From the IMG/VR virus record IMGVR_UViG_2778261631_000002: a stretch of DNA of 64,000 nucleotides; one strand, written 5' to 3'. A program made the translations under genes and the position numbers. The notes below the pieces were generated by a model. It had not been told where the DNA came from and did not search any database. It saw only the letters and a program-made list of their open reading frames with translations. The DNA is from a virus (taxonomy: Duplodnaviria > Heunggongvirae > Uroviricota > Caudoviricetes). This document shows positions 4,677 through 46,433 of the stretch, piece by piece; positions within the stretch are counted from its first letter, which is position 1; the number at the start of each line of letters is the position of its first letter.

Positions 4677-5040
4677 ACAATCTACGTAACGTGTCGGCGA
4701 CAGAAGATACAGATATCTCGCCAGTCGCAGCGCCTACAGTAAGGTCTGCCAGTTCAGGTGAATCAAATACCTGCACCCCGTTACGGCGTAGAAATAACAG
4801 CGCACTGTTTAGCGCGGTACGCTTATTGGCATCATTGAATATATGCCCTCTCGCTGTAGCCACCAGGTAGGTGGCGGAGACTTCGAAAAGGTCGGTGATC
4901 TCTTCGTAGGCAACTCTGGCCTGAACTCTCCCGATAATGGCCTCTGCCCTACCCGGATCTGACATTCCCGGCAGGCCGCCGTAGCGGTTTATATTCGCAT
5001 CATGAAGCGCAATAAGTTCTTCCGGTGATATATGCCTCAT
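4660..5040 (-). CDS. doc: Doc toxin (death on curing), Fic-fold kinase
   Basis: 126-aa [28 protein letters not shown]... recognised as P1 Doc; 1-nt overlap with phd. Confidence 0.95.
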
Positions 5041-5261
5041 TATCGGTTAACCAGTTCCTTGTTGGTGGAGTCCAGGGTGTCAAACAGGGATGCAAATTCA
5101 GCATCCAGCGCCGCTTTTTTGTAGGCTTCGAAAGTAGCCTTGCTGACAATTACTGCTGGCTCACGGCCTCTGCGGGTGATTTCAACCTCTTCCCCGGCTT
5201 CAACATTGTTGAGCACTTCAGAAAGGTTGCCGCGCGCGGTACGGAAGTTAATGGATTGCAT
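5040..5261 (-). CDS. phd: Phd antitoxin (prevents host death)
   Basis: 73-aa reading from [32 protein letters not shown]; the ORF track adds two upstream codons. Confidence 0.95.
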
Positions 5262-5333
5262 AAACACCTCGTGTACTCGTTATGTGTACATAATTATAAA
5301 CTTCACAGGCATAAAGCACCAGCACTTTGCAGC

Positions 5334-5723
5334 TTAAATGACCGGACAATCATCAAACTCCCCACTCCGGGCATCATTGATGACATGAGTGATCACACCA
5401 AAAACAGCATTACTACCCGTGTAACCATCGTCATCTACTGGTAACGCCTCTTTCTTCCCGGTGCTTAAATCCTCCAGGTGCTGGCGCGGATACTTTCGGT
5501 ATCTCTTTATGCGATATTCACCCTCCATAGCGCACACAAGCAGAGAACCATCAACCGGAGTAAGCGAGGAATCAACCACCAGCAAAGCACCCTGCAATAT
5601 TCCCTCACGGTGATGGCTATCAGCTGCCCGCATGAAGTAGGTTGCTGATGGATGCCTGATTAGTTGCTGATCAAGAGAAATTCGGCTTTCAACATAATCC
5701 GCCGCAGGAGAAGGGAAGCCCAT
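5334..5723 (-). CDS. humD: UmuD'-like protein HumD (LexA/S24 peptidase fold)
   Basis: 129-aa ORF, size and position as P1 humD; perfect LexA box 20 nt upstream of its start. Confidence 0.8.
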   Translation of the reverse strand: MGFPSPAADYVESRISLDQQLIRHPSATYFMRAADSHHREGILQGALLVVDSSLTPVDGSLLVCAMEGEYRIKRYRKYPRQHLEDLSTGKKEALPVDDDGYTGSNAVFGVITHVINDARSGEFDDCPVI

Positions 5724-5742
5724 AGCGTTTTTACCTCAATAA

Positions 5743-5762
5743 TACTGTTCATTTATACAGTA
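5743..5762. promoter_or_regulatory. LexA (SOS) box TACTGTTCATTTATACAGTA
   Basis: CTGT-N8-ACAG with near-perfect dyad symmetry in the divergent humD / 5898 intergenic region. Confidence 0.8.
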
Positions 5763-5897
5763 TACATTAAAGAGACACCTTTGGTGCAAACGCGTTACGT
5801 ACATCAACCACCGCTGATGATTTTGTGCTCTTTGCTACTATTCATCACCGCGGGATCAGCGTAACCTCGTTGCCAATCAGTTAATAAGGAATTAGCT

Positions 5898-6482
5898 ATG
5901 CCTAATCGCATTCCTCTCGATCCTGTATTGCCCAAAAATTTTGACTGCACTCCTAACGAGAAACGCTCTAAAGCTCAGCTGGACGCCTGGTGGGACCATC
6001 CATATGGGGTTACACAACCTGACGGGAAAATTGTAGTTTATTGTCTGAATGGTGGGGCGTGGGACCGTCCATCCGTGCTTTGTTTGGCAGATAACTATGA
6101 TGAAGCCTGTGAACTTGCCGAAAGACAGCAGGCAAGCTGGGTAAAAACACGGTCTGAACCGACATTCATGTTTTCAAAAGAACCGCCATTTATACTGGCG
6201 AGGATGCCGCAGCGACCGGATCATCAACAAGAAATTGTTGCTGAATTTTCCTCAAGGGATGAGATGAATCTCTTCTCATTAAAGCAGGAAGAAAGGGATC
6301 GCGTCGAAGTGTCTCCAACTCTCGACCACAACCGGATGAACCTAGCCCAGCTCGCCTGGTACAGCAAAGAATTAGAGATGTCTATTGCCCGGCTTGAAAA
6401 CGAAAAAGCCGCTATCCAAGTCCAGCACGAAGTAGTTCTGAACCGGATTAGAGAAATGCAAAACGATAACAGGGGATTTTGA
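5898..6482 (+). CDS. Hypothetical protein, first gene of an operon divergent from humD (possibly LexA-regulated)
   Basis: 194-aa ORF 136 nt from the LexA box; C-terminal coiled-coil-like segment; no recognisable domain. Confidence 0.55.
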   Translation: MPNRIPLDPVLPKNFDCTPNEKRSKAQLDAWWDHPYGVTQPDGKIVVYCLNGGAWDRPSVLCLADNYDEACELAERQQASWVKTRSEPTFMFSKEPPFILARMPQRPDHQQEIVAEFSSRDEMNLFSLKQEERDRVEVSPTLDHNRMNLAQLAWYSKELEMSIARLENEKAAIQVQHEVVLNRIREMQNDNRGF

Positions 6483-6839
6483 ATGGCTAAAATCGAGTAC
6501 CATCGCGATCGCGGTAATTACCTGGAAATATACGATCATGAATCTCTTAACGATATCAACGATGCGTTATATGAATACTGTGAAAAAACGAGCATCACAG
6601 ATGCACCTGATGCATTTGTCGAGATGCCGGTATATCTCCGCGACATCTATGCAATACGAACACCGCCCGTATCGGTGATTCACATTGGCTATGTCCGCCT
6701 GTCCATCGAAGAAGATGAAGATCGTTATATCGTGCGCCACTATACATTGGACAGAAAAGAACTTCCTAATGAATGGAACATGAGTAATTTCTACAACGGT
6801 GAATATGGCTTAAAATCCGCTAATAATTTACGGTCATAA
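6483..6839 (+). CDS. Hypothetical protein, translationally coupled to the upstream gene
   Basis: 118-aa ORF starting at the TGAATG junction; does not resemble theta/Hot. Confidence 0.55.
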   Translation: MAKIEYHRDRGNYLEIYDHESLNDINDALYEYCEKTSITDAPDAFVEMPVYLRDIYAIRTPPVSVIHIGYVRLSIEEDEDRYIVRHYTLDRKELPNEWNMSNFYNGEYGLKSANNLRS

Positions 6840-6928
6840 TCTATACAGGCATGTATAACAACAACGAGCCTATTAGCTGTCAACAACGTTATTTCCTCAA
6901 ATAAGAAAAAGCAGAAAAAAAATTGTTT

Positions 6929-6949
6929 AAGGTCACAAATTGTGGCCTT
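6929..6949 (-). terminator. Candidate minus-strand intrinsic terminator
   Basis: Near-palindrome AAGGTCACAAATTGTGGCCTT; minus-strand hairpin is followed by an AAACAATTTTTTTTCTGCTTTTT T-rich run. Confidence 0.35.
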
Positions 6950-7694
6950 GATGGAGGAGGGAGGCTTATTGGCTATGGCTAAAAATCAAATTAGACACTT
7001 CATGTTGCTGTAGCTCATCAAGATCCGAGGCCACAAAACCTTTTCCGAAAAACTTCACAAGTAACTCACTAGCCGCATCATTGTCACCTATTACACGAAA
7101 GTCATACGGCAACGTCGCAAGTTGACGATGTAATCCTGCTGAGAAAGTCGAATCTAACAGCGCCCAGAATTCCCACCGCAGGATAATACTCGCCTCTTAA
7201 TACTGTATATATGTTGTTACGATATGTTTTTCTGTCTCTAAAAAAAGATGTTAATAGAATGCTAACCATTGAAGGGGATAAAAATATACAATTCCAACAA
7301 ACGTTATTTTTAACAATTTTTTTCTTTGCGTTGACTTTCCCGGACACCTTGTCTGACCGAAGGTGCGCGAAAGCCACTTTTTCCTTCCTGAGTTATCCAC
7401 AAAGTTATGCACTTGCAAGAGGGCCATTTTCTACATATTGTGGTGGCTAACAGATGAAATGAATGTAGATTAATTGAAGATAAGGAGAAAATTTGAGATG
7501 CAATCATGACGTTAATAGATAGGGTCTGCATTACAGACCCCACCCGCATCAAGGAATTAGCCGTTCCCTGATGTTTTTCCGAAAACATGTGCCGTAAGCT
7601 CACGTTAACGACTTTCATTCACCGAATCCAACTATATAGGGGTTGGGTTTCTACGTCAACGTGAGCAAGTGCACCTTTACATTTGACAAGGAAC

Positions 7695-7832
7695 CACCTG
7701 AATGAACGCTTTTTTTCAGTTCCTGAGTGCATTTTTAGATGCGCCTATTATTAGCCAGATTCTGGCTATTATCCTCATCATCGTTTTGATTTTGCTTTTA
7801 AGGTCAGTAAAAAATGGAATTATGCACTGGCT
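7695..7832 (+). CDS. Small hydrophobic peptide (45 aa), candidate membrane peptide or type I toxin
   Basis: ATG preceded by AAGGAACC; MNAFFQFLSAFLDAPIISQILAIILIIVLILLLRSVKNGIMHWLT; sits in an AT-rich palindrome-dense noncoding region. Confidence 0.25.
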
Positions 7833-7914
7833 TACTTAATGTTTCAGTGAAACATTAAAATCTCCTTGATGTGGAAACAATCATTTTCTGTATGTGCTGG
7901 TGGGCACCTGTAGT

Positions 7915-8277
7915 TCAGCTTTCGTTGGCATTTAACTTCGTCTTTGCTTTCTCCACCAGCAACTTCCAGATGCCTATTTCATTAGCAGCCGCCTTGATGG
8001 CGGCATAAAAAGCATCTTGCTGATCGTAACGCTGGATCTGTTTTTTCAGTTTTGCCTCCACCAATTTAATTTCATTACGTGCTTTCTGAAGCCGCATCAC
8101 CGCCCGGTTACATCTGTTCTTGTATAGCGTGTTAATCTCTGACAATTGCTTTAATTTACCAGCCTGACTGCGGATTATCGCCTCCCTGGCTTCTGCCGTG
8201 CGTCTCATCTGATCTCTTAAGAGTTCACCGTTTTCGATAATTCTTTCAAGGTGTTTGATGTGATCTGCAACTCTCAT
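7915..8277 (-). CDS. Hypothetical coiled-coil protein
   Basis: 120-aa ORF, last gene of the minus-strand operon; start overlaps the upstream stop. Confidence 0.5.
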   Translation of the reverse strand: MRVADHIKHLERIIENGELLRDQMRRTAEAREAIIRSQAGKLKQLSEINTLYKNRCNRAVMRLQKARNEIKLVEAKLKKQIQRYDQQDAFYAAIKAAANEIGIWKLLVEKAKTKLNANES

Positions 8278-9572
8278 ACTTCACCCTCGCTTGTATCACC
8301 AGCGTCCACCAACGACAATAAAGCCCTGGCCATCTTATGAACCAACAGTGCATCAATAATGCCAAGCGTATGCCCCGGCTTAATGTTTAATGCTGCCTCA
8401 AGATGACACCTTTCCAGACCGCTTTTCTCGGCTTGTTTATGATGATATGGCGTAATAACGTCGCCCAAAACACGGCTAATTCTTTCTCGTAATTGCTGGG
8501 TGCCAGCACACTTGATCGCTGTATCGTGGAGACGGTTAACCAGTTCGCGATAAACATGCGGCTTAATGCGGATACGTTCACCGGTGACGCCCTTTCCTGG
8601 CGCTGGCACCGAACTATCCGGAATATCCGGATAGTTGCCAGCCTCGTAAGCTACCCGCAGCCAGTGCATGAATGTTTCAGTGGACACACAACCACAGTCC
8701 ACATCGATTTTCCCGCGTTGCTGTTCCAGCCATTGCCCAAAATCCAACCTGTAAGTCTTACTTTGGCTTACAGGTTGGCTACCCTGAAGCATGGCAGCGT
8801 GGCAGGCATACTCAACGCCCTTAACTGCATCTGCGCAGTAGTTATAGCGATTGCATTCCACTAATTTCCGTTTGAGTTTTTCAATTGCCTGCGCGACATC
8901 AGCCTGTATTACAGGAACTGGCGGAACGGCTGTTTGCTCTCGAACGTCATTAGTCGCTATCGGTTCTGCTGCCAACTGACTGGCATATTTGTTAATGGTA
9001 ACGATAAGCTCTTGCTCAGCCTCATCCAGACAATCACCGATACCTCGCCTGTCACCGTCAAAATCATCGAAATCGGCACGAATCTTGGCAACCTTCAGGA
9101 TTGCGGACAACACCTCACTAGGAATTACCGGATAGTTGGTTGACGTTTCCGCGATTTCCCGAAAATTATTGGTTGACGAATTCTTGTTTTCCCGAAAGTT
9201 TCCGGACTGAAGCATGGCGGCGCGGCAGGCGTTCCAGCCATCTGCGTAACAATCTCTGTGTGTCTTGAAATATGTCACCGCCCTTGGTACATCGTTTACG
9301 TCTATTTCATCCGGCACAACCGGCGCAGGTGAGTCAGCATAAACAGGAATAACGTCCGGTTGCTCTTTATTGCTTTCATCCGTTAAAGCCCAGAATAATT
9401 TCCCGGCCGGATGTTTGAAAATATAAGCAACTGGTTCTGCTTCCAGCGATGCCAGAGCAATTCGTGCCAGTTCTTCCGCTTCTTCTGCTGGCAGTACAAC
9501 GTTGCTACCAGGTCCGTATGTTTCGCGCCACTGCTTGATTGTCAGTAGTCGCTCTTTGGTAATAGTGATCAT
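8274..9572 (-). CDS. Hypothetical protein with an internal duplicated Cys motif
   Basis: 432-aa ORF; repeated C-x-A-D-x(4-6)-C-x-A-A-M-L-Q segments. Confidence 0.6.
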   Translation of the reverse strand: MITITKERLLTIKQWRETYGPGSNVVLPAEEAEELARIALASLEAEPVAYIFKHPAGKLFWALTDESNKEQPDVIPVYADSPAPVVPDEIDVNDVPRAVTYFKTHRDCYADGWNACRAAMLQSGNFRENKNSSTNNFREIAETSTNYPVIPSEVLSAILKVAKIRADFDDFDGDRRGIGDCLDEAEQELIVTINKYASQLAAEPIATNDVREQTAVPPVPVIQADVAQAIEKLKRKLVECNRYNYCADAVKGVEYACHAAMLQGSQPVSQSKTYRLDFGQWLEQQRGKIDVDCGCVSTETFMHWLRVAYEAGNYPDIPDSSVPAPGKGVTGERIRIKPHVYRELVNRLHDTAIKCAGTQQLRERISRVLGDVITPYHHKQAEKSGLERCHLEAALNIKPGHTLGIIDALLVHKMARALLSLVDAGDTSEGEV

Positions 9573-10084
9573 GCCGCGTTTCCTTCTTTCTTATTAACAA
9601 TTACACCGTCATATATTTCATTAAGGTGCCCTCTCAACTCCATGCGCCTTAATGCAGATAACATGTAATCGCATTCAACCTGCTTATTTCCAGTAAATGG
9701 CTTATCGTCAGGATTACCCCAACAGCAATTACCCTTGGGCCACCCATGTACTTTCCGTACTCTTCCGTTAACAACGTGAAGTAATCCCCAGCCAGGTGGT
9801 AAATCCTCAATTGAAATAATTCCCGGCTCACTAATAAAGAATCGCCAGTCGCCCATTCCAAGAGACGGATTTTTACGAAAACGCTTTTTTCTATCTGCCA
9901 ACAAGTCAGCACGAGAACACTTCGCCTCTATCAGGCATGATGCTGAATTTCTGAATCCCATAGCATCTGGCTGTTCTCCGGTACTGGTTACAGCTATAAA
10001 GCGGTCATGAAAACAAACCTTGAACCCGTTGCGCTTAAGGAACTTGTACGCAATCTGACAGAGTTCGCGGTGTGTTAACGCCAT
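9569..10084 (-). CDS. Putative PD-(D/E)xK-type nuclease-fold protein
   Basis: 171-aa ORF with QPD ... IEAK spacing typical of restriction-endonuclease-like folds; motif-level only. Confidence 0.4.
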   Translation of the reverse strand: MALTHRELCQIAYKFLKRNGFKVCFHDRFIAVTSTGEQPDAMGFRNSASCLIEAKCSRADLLADRKKRFRKNPSLGMGDWRFFISEPGIISIEDLPPGWGLLHVVNGRVRKVHGWPKGNCCWGNPDDKPFTGNKQVECDYMLSALRRMELRGHLNEIYDGVIVNKKEGNAA

Positions 10085-34021: not shown

Positions 34022-34039
34022 TTATCCACATTATCCACT
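34022..34039 (+). promoter_or_regulatory. Tandem DnaA boxes TTATCCACA / TTATCCACT
   Basis: Two consensus 9-mers head to tail at the left edge of the origin; a third (CTATCCACA) at 34272..34280. Confidence 0.75.
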
Positions 34040-34242: not shown

Positions 34243-34298
34243 GCCTGGGTAGTTATCATCACTTATAAAAACTATCCACATAATTCGGAAAAAGTAAT

Positions 34299-35159
34299 AT
34301 GAATCAATCATTTATCTCCGATATTCTTTACGCAGACATTGAAAGTAAGGCAAAAGAACTAACAGTTAATTCAAACAACACTGTGCAGCCTGTAGCGTTG
34401 ATGCGCTTGGGGGTATTCGTTCCGAAGCCATCAAAGAGCAAAGGAGAAAGTAAAGAGATTGATGCCACCAAAGCGTTTTCCCAGCTGGAGATAGCTAAAG
34501 CCGAGGGTTACGATGATATTAAAATCACCGGTCCTCGACTCGATATGGATACTGATTTCAAAACGTGGATCGGTGTCATCTACGCGTTCAGCAAATACGG
34601 CTTGTCTTCAAACACCATCCAGTTATCGTTTCAGGAGTTCGCTAAAGCCTGTGGTTTCCCCTCAAAACGTCTGGATGCGAAACTGCGTTTAACCATTCAT
34701 GAATCACTTGGACGCTTGCGTAACAAGGGTATCGCTTTTAAGCGCGGAAAAGATGCTAAAGGCGGCTATCAGACTGGTCTGCTGAAGGTCGGGCGTTTTG
34801 ATGCTGACCTTGATCTGATAGAGCTGGAGGCCGATTCGAAGCTCTGGGAGCTGTTCCAGCTTGATTATCGCGTTCTGTTGCAACACCACGCCTTGCGTGC
34901 CCTTCCGAAGAAAGAAGCTGCACAAGCCATTTACACTTTCATCGAAAGCCTTCCGCAGAACCCGTTGCCGCTATCGTTCGCGCGAATCCGTGAGCGCCTG
35001 GCTTTGCAGTCAGCTGTTGGCGAGCAAAACCGTATCATTAAGAAAGCGATAGAACAGCTTAAAACAATCGGCTATCTCGACTGTTCAATTGAGAAGAAAG
35101 GCCGGGAAAGTTTTGTAATCGTCCATTCTCGCAATCCAAAGCTGAAACTTCCCGAATAA
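34299..35159 (+). CDS. repA: Plasmid replication initiator RepA (P1 R-replicon)
   Basis: 286-aa ORF MNQSFISDILYADIESKAK... recognised as P1 RepA; flanked by iteron arrays. Confidence 0.9.
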   Translation: MNQSFISDILYADIESKAKELTVNSNNTVQPVALMRLGVFVPKPSKSKGESKEIDATKAFSQLEIAKAEGYDDIKITGPRLDMDTDFKTWIGVIYAFSKYGLSSNTIQLSFQEFAKACGFPSKRLDAKLRLTIHESLGRLRNKGIAFKRGKDAKGGYQTGLLKVGRFDADLDLIELEADSKLWELFQLDYRVLLQHHALRALPKKEAAQAIYTFIESLPQNPLPLSFARIRERLALQSAVGEQNRIIKKAIEQLKTIGYLDCSIEKKGRESFVIVHSRNPKLKLPE

Positions 35160-45618: not shown

Positions 45619-46433
45619 TTTTCGTTATCTTTATTTTTGGCTAAAACCGCATTAAGAGCTTCGTTTACCGTCATGCAATGCGGTAGATTATCGAAGTTTG
45701 ATATCCCGCCAATATCAGGCGAACGCTTGTTCTTCAGGTAAGCATATTTCCGCGCAGCCGCCTCTACTTTCTGCTTGAACTCATGTTTTTGAGCGCGTTT
45801 TTTGGATAACCGCAGATTGTCAGCCTTTGCTTTTGCCTCAGCGATCCATGAAGTCAATTTTTTGAGTCTTGTCGTTCCGGCACCGCCGGAAACTGATCTT
45901 TTTGTTTTTTTAACTTGTGACTTCTTATTCTTTATTGCCACGTCATCCTGACAGGGGGAGGGGGTATCATTTTGACATGGGGGTGTGGATAAAAAATCAA
46001 ATAAAGCCAATGTCTTAGCGAGAACAGCTTTAACCTTGGTTGCGGCTGAAGAGATCTTTAATTTGCTTTCAATCAGCGCGTTTTTAGCGTGTTGTGCGAA
46101 GGCCAAAAAGGATGGTGTAAACCGGTACAGGTTAGCGCGGCGTTCACGGTGATCGCCGATAACAATCTCTACCGACAGGATTCCTTTGTTTACAGCTTCA
46201 CGGAATGCGCGAACGACGGTTGATTGGCTATAACCAGTTTCTGCCGCGATCATGCGGTGAGGCTTGTGAATGAAGTATTCACTGGTTGTTGCCGCGAGAT
46301 TTGCACATTGCGACAGGATATGCCCGGCGCTACGGGATAGACCGGAGTGTGTTACAAAGCAGGCCAATTCATAGCCAGAAAAAGTAAAATCGCTCATCGT
46401 TATACAGCTCAGGAAAGTGACTTTAGCCAGCAT
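45588..46433 (-). CDS. repL: Lytic-replicon initiator RepL-like protein
   Basis: 281-aa ORF downstream of kilA in a C1-controlled operon; size and position as P1 RepL. Confidence 0.55.
   Translation of the reverse strand: MLAKVTFLSCITMSDFTFSGYELACFVTHSGLSRSAGHILSQCANLAATTSEYFIHKPHRMIAAETGYSQSTVVRAFREAVNKGILSVEIVIGDHRERRANLYRFTPSFLAFAQHAKNALIESKLKISSAATKVKAVLAKTLALFDFLSTPPCQNDTPSPCQDDVAIKNKKSQVKKTKRSVSGGAGTTRLKKLTSWIAEAKAKADNLRLSKKRAQKHEFKQKVEAAARKYAYLKNKRSPDIGGISNFDNLPHCMTVNEALNAVLAKNKDNEKWGIPAGFRG

Follow-up and report, generated by a model that had tools for sequence, protein, structure and literature searches.

The gap between Upf93.6 and the PmgV homologue, at 6840-7915 of the 64,000-nt stretch of IMG/VR virus record IMGVR_UViG_2778261631_000002 (hereafter the window, meaning the whole DNA analysed), holds in its right half what we read as a self-contained type I toxin-antitoxin-like cassette, found in many phage-plasmids of the P1/P7 family. 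We give this reading of 7297-7860 a probability of about 0.5. In the arrangement that we propose, a host-type sigma-70 promoter derived from the nrdA region of Escherichia coli, with both DnaA boxes kept, would start a plus-strand mRNA at ~7449. This mRNA would have a structured leader of ~250 nt, with a strong Shine-Dalgarno (SD) sequence and a mini-ORF (a very short open reading frame) followed by three hairpins (H1, H2 and H3), and would encode a single-pass membrane peptide of 45 residues. A strong, invariant promoter predicted inside H3 would fire in the opposite direction and yield an antisense RNA of ~110 nt, running from ~7623 to ~7514 and ending at H1 and a U-rich tail. This RNA would pair with the leader rather than with the ribosome-binding site (RBS) of the peptide, and would keep peptide synthesis off either because the duplex is cleaved or because an upstream element, be it a ribosome-entry site or a leader ORF, is blocked; these two are the default options. 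In the plasmid-prophage state, where it could be expressed, the cassette would serve for addiction or stress beside phd/doc, which lies 2 kb away.

Taken together, the small hydrophobic peptide, the structured leader, the predicted cis-antisense RNA over the 5' untranslated region (UTR) and the tiny upstream frame make a type I-like module the best explanation. A preliminary description of the gap had already suggested a type I toxin-like locus with a folded leader. The right half indeed has this architecture, whereas the palindrome with its "terminator" on the left and a pair of 9-mers, which had been counted in, lie outside the unit. That description mentioned neither the antisense promoter and terminator in the leader, nor the nrdA-derived promoter with its DnaA boxes, nor the upstream SD with its mini-ORF.

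The predicted membrane peptide and the structured leader

The 45-codon ORF is very likely a real gene. It had been placed, with its SD, at 7695..7832; both exist, and the position had to be corrected (Table 1). We compared the locus in P1, plasmids, 54 IMG/VR contigs and assemblies, which fall into four clades: A (P7 type), B (P1 type, 96% amino acid identity of the peptide), C (pYLPM7a and pESA118_2, 58%) and D (P0006, 59%). The preliminary description had made its proposal depend on the small ORF being conserved as a reading frame in related genomes, and this is what we observed: the start, the stop and the length of 45 residues are identical in all four clades with zero indels, while the flanking non-coding DNA has several. 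The frame is intact in 61/61 fetched loci of clades A-C and in four clade-D loci. Amino acid replacements are conservative (I/V, L/F, R/K). When the 33 observed substitutions were re-placed at random, the frame remained open in 8% of the trials, and open as well as equally hydrophobic in 2.9%. The peptide has a single predicted transmembrane (TM) helix, with a maximal Kyte-Doolittle mean of 3.1 over 19 residues, and a basic C-terminal tail.

With tblastn, 216 plasmids have a match that spans 80% or more of the peptide. The module is present in 216 of the 5426 complete E. coli genomes (~4%), to be compared with 359 that have a P1-type repA, and is thus accessory. In RefSeq plasmids the annotation pipeline PGAP calls the ORF as a hypothetical protein (WP_000123562.1), and it is unannotated in the reference genomes of P1 and P7. 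Only the peptide's own family was retrieved by HMMER from 1.84 billion representative proteins, or by a word-indexed search of 5.8 billion, with the single sequence and with a profile. The representative genomes of GTDB gave no relatives with either the peptide pattern or the leader DNA pattern, and a metagenome scan with the arms of H3 returned only the known clades and unrelated matches.

A few copies of the ORF are disrupted. In pNord122_1 (locus L064, 760-1530; P0002, P0003 and P0004 are also among the disrupted copies) an IS1 lies at the 3' end of the ORF, at codon 39/40, in an A-run. In a clade-C copy, codon 36 is followed by the same tail from IS1, a further copy is broken after codon 31, and a fourth has a C-terminal frameshift. 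These recurrent disruptions, which are anecdotal, fit a costly gene and counter-selection, or just the preference of IS1 for AT-rich targets.

Between clades A and C, nucleotide identity is 57% just after the promoter, 90.5% in 7478-7666, 63% in the linker and SD, 76% in the ORF and 57% after the stop codon, which makes the non-coding leader the most constrained part. The best-conserved block (7479-7666) extends from the upstream SD through the antisense -35 element. The suggestion of a folded leader therefore held up well, since this segment is the best conserved, substitutions avoid its predicted stems, and both H1 and the hairpin at the end of the ORF have two covarying pairs each. More precisely, the leader, as delimited by the predicted mRNA start, has folding z-scores of -3.1 to -3.7, and substitutions affect 5/113 paired versus 21/99 unpaired positions (Fisher p=2e-4), a contrast to be read with the caveat that most pairs never vary and that the same sequences served to derive the structure. 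RNAalifold found 6 pairs in the four clades that changed on both sides and yet still pair.

Several inverted repeats noted previously turn out to be parts of this structure or to lie close by. The GGGTCTG/CAGACCC hairpin was found and corresponds to H1, in which the covarying pairs are G-C/A-U and U-A/C-G, and ATGTTTT-TCCG-AAAACAT was found at 7571-7588. The 13-nt inverted repeat is present and forms the outer arms of H3, with a spacing of 43 nt rather than about 50. H3 is nearly invariant, with one mismatch in clade D, and H2 has an invariant stem and a loop that varies by clade. A long-range helix is predicted between a pyrimidine-rich segment of the ORF and the upstream SD region (7479-7489); in clade D it is kept through four A-to-G changes that give G.U pairs. 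We rejected a sequestration of the peptide SD by codons 6-7, as it appears in the minimum free energy fold of the window but is not conserved.

The upstream SD is purine-rich and followed by a start codon in all four clades. The mini-ORF that it precedes reads AUG-CAA-UCA-UGA in the window and AUG-UAA or GUG-UAA in other clades, and a TTG-initiated frame of 9 codons (7493-7522) is open in all of them.

The predicted antisense gene and the nrdA-like promoter

The predicted antisense promoter, TTGACG-17-TATAGT, matches the sigma-70 consensus at 10/12 positions and corresponds to the site named PupfN in P1. Only 4 sites reach at least 10/12 on the two strands of the window (2 x 64 kb, i.e. 128 kb), this one among them, and the chance of finding such a site in the 190-bp conserved block is ~0.01. 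The four clades agree in both hexamers and in the length of the spacer. We infer a start at ~7623. The resulting RNA would be fully complementary to the leader (5' arm of H3, H2 and H1) and would not overlap the SD or AUG of the peptide. Its predicted fold has -44.5 kcal/mol (z = -4.1). On the minus strand H1 resembles a terminator, being followed by UAUCUAUU (7521-7514), and in clade D a terminator scan reports the same hairpin with TATCTTTTAA (tail UAUCUUUU). The predicted antisense gene (7514-7659) lies entirely inside the best-conserved block, as expected if both strands are constrained. All in all, we consider it rather likely that the antisense RNA is made. Another minus-strand promoter, at 7847..7819 (named P1upfM in P1), was discarded because it is weak and its hexamers are not conserved in clade C.

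On the plus strand, a segment of 92 bp (7340-7431) is 97-99% identical to the chromosome just upstream of nrdA in 5426/5426 complete E. coli genomes, and the alignment can be stretched back to ~7297, for a homologous length of ~135 bp. It includes two DnaA boxes. The first, which is perfect, is invariant in clades A-C and in E. coli, with a single change in the flanking sequence in clade D and in the SSU5-like phage-plasmid Cyrano; the second is invariant in all clades and in E. coli. The homology stops between the -35 and -10 elements of the predicted promoter. In the same register, the nrdA promoter reads TTGCAA-17-TATCTT, so that both elements align exactly. From this register we infer that the peptide mRNA starts at ~7449; the equivalent start in E. 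coli falls ~105 nt before the nrdA ATG (locus L009), in agreement with the mapped nrd start, which we take to be ~110 nt before the ATG. The -35 element and the spacer are invariant across the four phage clades, while P1 and clades C and D are diverged in the DNA farther upstream. This suggests that the capture is old and that the P7 clade was re-converted later.

The module resembles the nrdAB promoter region in its upstream AT-rich DNA, both DnaA boxes, the -35 element and the spacer, all in exact register. It differs in that the downstream transcript is unrelated to nrdA and that the NrdR boxes of nrdA were not retained: at the promoter, the only match to an NrdR box (7429-7442) has 3 mismatches and is at chance level.

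The same nrdA-like promoter and DnaA boxes occur in Cyrano (OV696614; locus L008, 1956-2700), where they lie downstream of an intact LexA box. The cargo is different there. A bidirectional terminator ~80 nt past the promoter may define a short RNA, and a hydrophobic ORF of 27 aa (MVNLLFKIVPPMFAIIKAIIEYVNQRP, 2602-2684) has an SD, a terminator and short internal repeats. Downstream of the shared promoter, we found no homology between the module of the window and the Cyrano cassette, which may be a second, unrelated type I-like cassette behind the same captured promoter.

Surroundings of the cassette and origin of the gap

Over 6700-8000, identity is 99.9% with phage P7 (AF503408), leaving aside the IS903 of P7, and 99.7-99.8% with SJ46 and several "P1" isolates. 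P1 itself is 96% identical to the window from 7363 rightwards. On these alignments, the window belongs to the phage P1 family and is P7-like, and the lack of IS903 in the window and in most relatives indicates a genome of P7 type rather than P7 itself. The window also has three minus-strand tRNA genes, for Met (25712-25787), Thr (27428-27503) and Asn (27506-27581), as expected in genomes of the P1 family. In line with the preliminary description, the gap is AT-rich (39.2% GC versus 47.3% in the whole window). Judging from the homologies of its parts, it is made of two halves of differing origin and is not one unit.

The left half (6840-7363) is a recombination scar, made of the 3' end of a lost gene with its terminator, a degenerate LexA box and AT-rich DNA. 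The gene remnant contains a minus-strand ORF of 48 aa (6966..7112) that corresponds to the C-terminal part of a 174-aa hypothetical protein of PhiR41_1 and matches phrog_17952 (E=2e-26). We found the 21-bp palindrome and minus-strand T-run reported at 6929..6949, the latter being the A8 run at 6915-6922, 6 nt past the stem, and the same hairpin follows the full-length gene in PhiR41_1. The LexA box has lost its second half-site; in Cyrano the whole box is intact (TACTGTATACACATACAGTA). In P7, IS903 is inserted inside the remnant (target site CACGAAAGT, duplication at 7094-7102). As for the two 9-mers described as GTGACTTTC-like, they have in common only the 8-mer TGACTTTC, as expected by chance in 1 kb of AT-rich DNA; one lies in the DNA homologous to the nrdA upstream region and the other partly overlaps the target site of IS903. 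Being part of the decayed remnants of the left half, the palindrome with its terminator and the 9-mers are unconnected to the small ORF.

In P1, the equivalent gap is annotated with lxr, hot and the minus-strand ORFs upfO, upfN and upfM, and an older P1 record (M95666) marks on the plus strand an "nrdA-like promoter" and a "dnaA box". The region is within one of the eight hypervariable regions of P1-like plasmids (PMC9603915). In pYLPM7a (locus L004, 1-5528) the module is flanked by a homologue of hot on one side and by a type I restriction-modification operon (hsdM/hsdS) on the other, near metG and apbC, which shows that the block of humD, hot and the module moves among different phage-plasmid backbones.

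The C1 operator consensus ATTGCTCTAATAAATTT, with up to 3 mismatches, has 11 sites in the window where 0.39 are expected, spanning 873-49019, and none of them within 6840-7915. Since the block has no C1 operator, its expression in the plasmid-prophage state is possible. The 11 matches (for example at 28247-28263, 12410-12426 and 31769-31785) give a map of the C1 regulon in this genome. The operon on the pmgT-pmgV side is probably under the control of the site at 12410, and its transcripts, made in lytic growth, would then cross the module in antisense direction. DnaA boxes with at most 1 mismatch number 25 in the whole window, against 14.5 expected. Further perfect or near-perfect ones are at 34022-34039, 34272-34280 and 45984-45992, and the cluster at 34 kb, which immediately precedes repA (34299-35159), presumably represents oriR, the plasmid origin.

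Table 1. Features of the gap and its flanks, with positions in the window
Feature	Position	Strand	Basis or remark
humD	5334-5723	-	flanking gene
Upf94.2	5898-6482	+	flanking gene
Upf93.6	6483-6839	+	flanking gene
Decayed 3' gene remnant	6885..7177	-	~90% DNA identity to the SSU5-like phage-plasmids PhiR41_1 and CMS-2020a
Terminator-like hairpin (6929-6949, AAGGTCACAAATTGTGGCCTT) and T-run	6915..6949	-	sequence; same hairpin after the full-length PhiR41_1 gene
SSU5-type humD upstream remnant with degenerate LexA box TACTGTATATATGTTG	7184..7216		alignment to Cyrano
Homologue of the E. coli nrdA upstream regulatory region (ypaB in RefSeq)	7297..7431	+	identity, alignment
Two DnaA boxes: TTATCCACA (7393-7401, perfect) and TTATGCACT (7405-7413)	7393..7413	+	sequence, scan
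Predicted sigma-70 promoter: -35 TTGCAA (7413-7418), 17-nt spacer, -10 TATTGT (7436-7441)	7413..7441	+	positional homology to nrdA
Upstream SD AAGGAG (7482-7487) and mini-ORF (7498-7509)	7479..7509	+	purine-rich SD and start codon in four clades
Predicted cis-antisense RNA, ~110 nt	7514..7623	-	promoter and terminator-like end
Hairpin H1, GGGUCUG/CAGACCC	7522..7540	+	two covarying pairs
Hairpin H2, CAUCA-A-GGAAU / GUUCC-C-UGAUG	7547..7573	+	stem conservation
Bipartite hairpin H3: outer arms 7598-7610 / 7654-7666, inner stem 7624-7633 / 7641-7650	7598..7666	+	conservation in four clades
Predicted antisense sigma-70 promoter	7659..7631	-	10/12 match
SD of the 45-aa ORF, AAGGA (other clades GAGG or AAGGAG)	7688..7692	+	sequence
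45-aa hydrophobic ORF, including stop, MNAFFQFLSAFLDAPIISQILAIILIIVLILLLRSVKNGIMHWLT	7702..7839	+	conservation, PGAP call
Pyrimidine-rich segment in the ORF, predicted long-range helix	7769..7779	+	RNAalifold prediction
Hairpin over the stop codon, UUAAUGUUUCA-G-UGAAACAUUAA, no U-tract	7836..7858	+	two covarying pairs among clades
PmgV homologue	7915-8277	-	flanking gene

Competing readings and comparison with known systems

A number of observations weigh against a type I cassette. For the peptide, there is no significant family match in Pfam, NCBIfam or PADLOC, PHROGs give only chance-level matches (E=0.058 and 0.11), and the dN/dS of the ORF (0.41) is not frame-specific at this length. Moreover, ~40% of the replicons with a P1-type repA are without the module. 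For the transcripts, the mRNA promoter scores 8/12, equal to nrdA's own, the ORF is not followed by an intrinsic terminator, clades A-C have a weak antisense terminator, and the covariation comes from only four clades with most pairs invariant. A scan of 5000-10000 with Rfam (E<=1) gave no match. We also rejected a simple translational switch in which the antisense RNA would occlude the peptide SD, as blocking 7513-7623 in silico gave no consistent change in the unpaired probability. In the searchable literature, we found nothing specific on the locus, the peptide sequence, the RNA, P1 transcriptomes or a type I system in P1. Finally, knock-outs and CRISPRi of upfN/upfO gave no plaque defect (PMC10695390, PMC9024508); although it belongs in this list, the dispensability of the region for plaque formation says nothing for or against a toxin-antitoxin module.

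The main rival is a real gene for a small membrane protein that is not toxic, such as an accessory "moron" or a modulator of lysogeny or lysis, with a regulatory 5' UTR and an nrdA-like promoter, and with an antisense promoter that is either silent or used for fine-tuning. Lack of toxicity is common among the small membrane proteins of E. coli and of its phages. The coding evidence for the ORF, the conserved leader and the promoter fit this reading equally well, the peptide has no similarity to any toxin family, and the module is dispensable for plaque formation. Yet the most conserved block holds the whole predicted antisense gene, and not the ORF or its RBS, and known cases of a hydrophobic peptide of at most 60 aa with a long leader and a cis-antisense RNA are nearly always type I toxin-antitoxin systems (PMC4147584). 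We regard a non-toxic protein as possible and somewhat doubtful.

The better conservation of the leader and antisense block relative to the ORF could also mean that the locus is only a small RNA gene, with either the ~110-nt minus-strand RNA or the plus-strand leader RNA acting in trans, on targets of the host or the phage, and the 45-aa ORF being incidental. The good promoter and terminator and the stable fold of the antisense RNA go in this direction. We find this improbable, as the ORF keeps its SD, start and stop without indels over 24% nucleotide divergence, while its flanks have indels, and it is intact in all the loci counted above; the lack of an Rfam match speaks against it too.

Still less probable is that the right half is, like the left, a non-functional recombination scar, with clades made similar by recent exchange and motifs that arose by chance. 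The region is hypervariable in P1-like plasmids (PMC9603915), the left half is truly a mosaic of remnants, and part of the nrdA-like DNA of the P7 clade looks recently converted from E. coli. Against this, the conservation is graded and structured, the changes particular to a clade are either compensatory or confined to loops and linkers, four clades retain the ORF together with both SDs and the hexamers of the antisense promoter, and the promoter match is rare.

Least credible of all is that the minus-strand genes annotated in the reference genomes (upfM/upfN/upfO in P1; Upf91.3/91.4/91.6/91.7 in P7) are the real content of the gap: in line with the earlier remark that it has no convincing long ORF, even P1 and P7 differ in the lengths of these ORFs, none of which has a significant family match, and in clade C, at 78% identity, indels and stops break the frames, the longest stop-free stretch falling from 59 to 31 codons. 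One of them, Upf91.6 (7251-7427, minus strand), overlaps the stretch annotated as ypaB, a dubious ORF upstream of E. coli nrdA (locus L009, 545-688), and both may be annotation artefacts of a regulatory region.

If the type I reading is right, it matters because P1 is among the most studied phages and a model plasmid-prophage, whose stable inheritance is usually credited to par, to the controls of plasmid replication and to phd/doc, a type II system. A second module for killing or stress, this one under RNA control, would bring in new families of both toxin and antisense RNA. The reference annotation would be corrected, with upfM/N/O appearing as artefacts on the wrong strand. It would also provide a testable case of a mobile element that reuses a host promoter regulated by DnaA to time a membrane peptide, and would be of relevance for resistance-spreading P1-like plasmids. 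Systems of this kind are known, while the toxin and RNA families of this one and an nrdA-derived DnaA-box promoter in this role are not. In its fullest form, the proposal would be an unrecognised type I system of P1/P7, with a new toxin family (at most a distant relative of Ldr), a new antisense RNA and a captured nrdA promoter whose DnaA boxes wire the toxin to replication initiation or dNTP stress in the host. Such a cassette, with phd/doc, humD and hot as neighbours, would be a "replication-sensing" module for addiction or stress. That whole chain is speculative and, as it stands, unlikely to be right in every part.

The anatomy of ldr/rdl, hok/sok and tisB/istR is described in PMC4147584, and the architecture of the module fits it, being closest to ldr/rdl and hok/sok. 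Like ldrD/rdlD, it has a small toxin candidate with a single TM helix, a long 5' UTR and a predicted cis-antisense RNA over the 5' UTR that stays off the RBS and start codon; in ldrD/RdlD too, a small leader ORF, ldrX, was proposed in the 5' UTR (PMC4147584). The peptides share 7/15 residues at an equal distance from the N-terminus (LDAPIISQILAIILI versus LAAPVIAGILASMIV), a resemblance with a shuffle p of 0.005-0.03 that is lost on correction for the number of families, and with an hhalign probability of 2%. Ldr gave no Pfam match at E<=10 and none in NCBIfam, nor did RdlD in Rfam. The DNA is not alignable, ldrD being GC-rich, the peptide has 45 aa rather than 35, and the module is on a phage-plasmid behind an nrdA-derived promoter. 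On this evidence, we treat the relationship with Ldr as a lead and not as membership.

Like hok/mok/sok of plasmid R1, the module is plasmid-borne and would produce a structured mRNA of ~400 nt with long-range pairing between its 5' and 3' parts, a hydrophobic toxin of ~50 aa, a short cis-antisense RNA against the leader and an upstream reading frame. By analogy, control by this upstream frame and a role in post-segregational killing may be further likenesses. However, the mini-ORF counts 1-3 codons, or 9 with a TTG start, and stops ~180 nt short of the peptide ORF, which makes translational coupling of the mok type impossible, and an antisense RNA stopping at H1 would leave the SD of the mini-ORF uncovered. 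Neither Pfam HOK_GEF (PF01848, E<=10) nor Rfam Sok (E<=1) gave a match, and the Pfam, NCBIfam and Rfam scans gave none to Fst, TisB, ShoB, Ibs, DinQ or ZorO.

The antitoxins of tisB/istR-1, zorO/orzO, shoB/ohsC and dinQ/agrB are divergently transcribed and partly complementary to their targets, whereas the predicted RNA of the module is fully cis-antisense; the module also has no functional LexA box, the nearby one being degenerate. It nevertheless shares with this group a location beside SOS genes (humD, and lxr in P1) and, within the 5' UTR, a predicted pairing well upstream, at an entry or standby site. The two mechanisms that we consider, duplex cleavage and leader block, were proposed for ldrD/RdlD and shown for hok/Sok and tisB/IstR-1, and the standby mechanism of tisB/IstR-1 is a precedent for action at a distance (PMC4147584).

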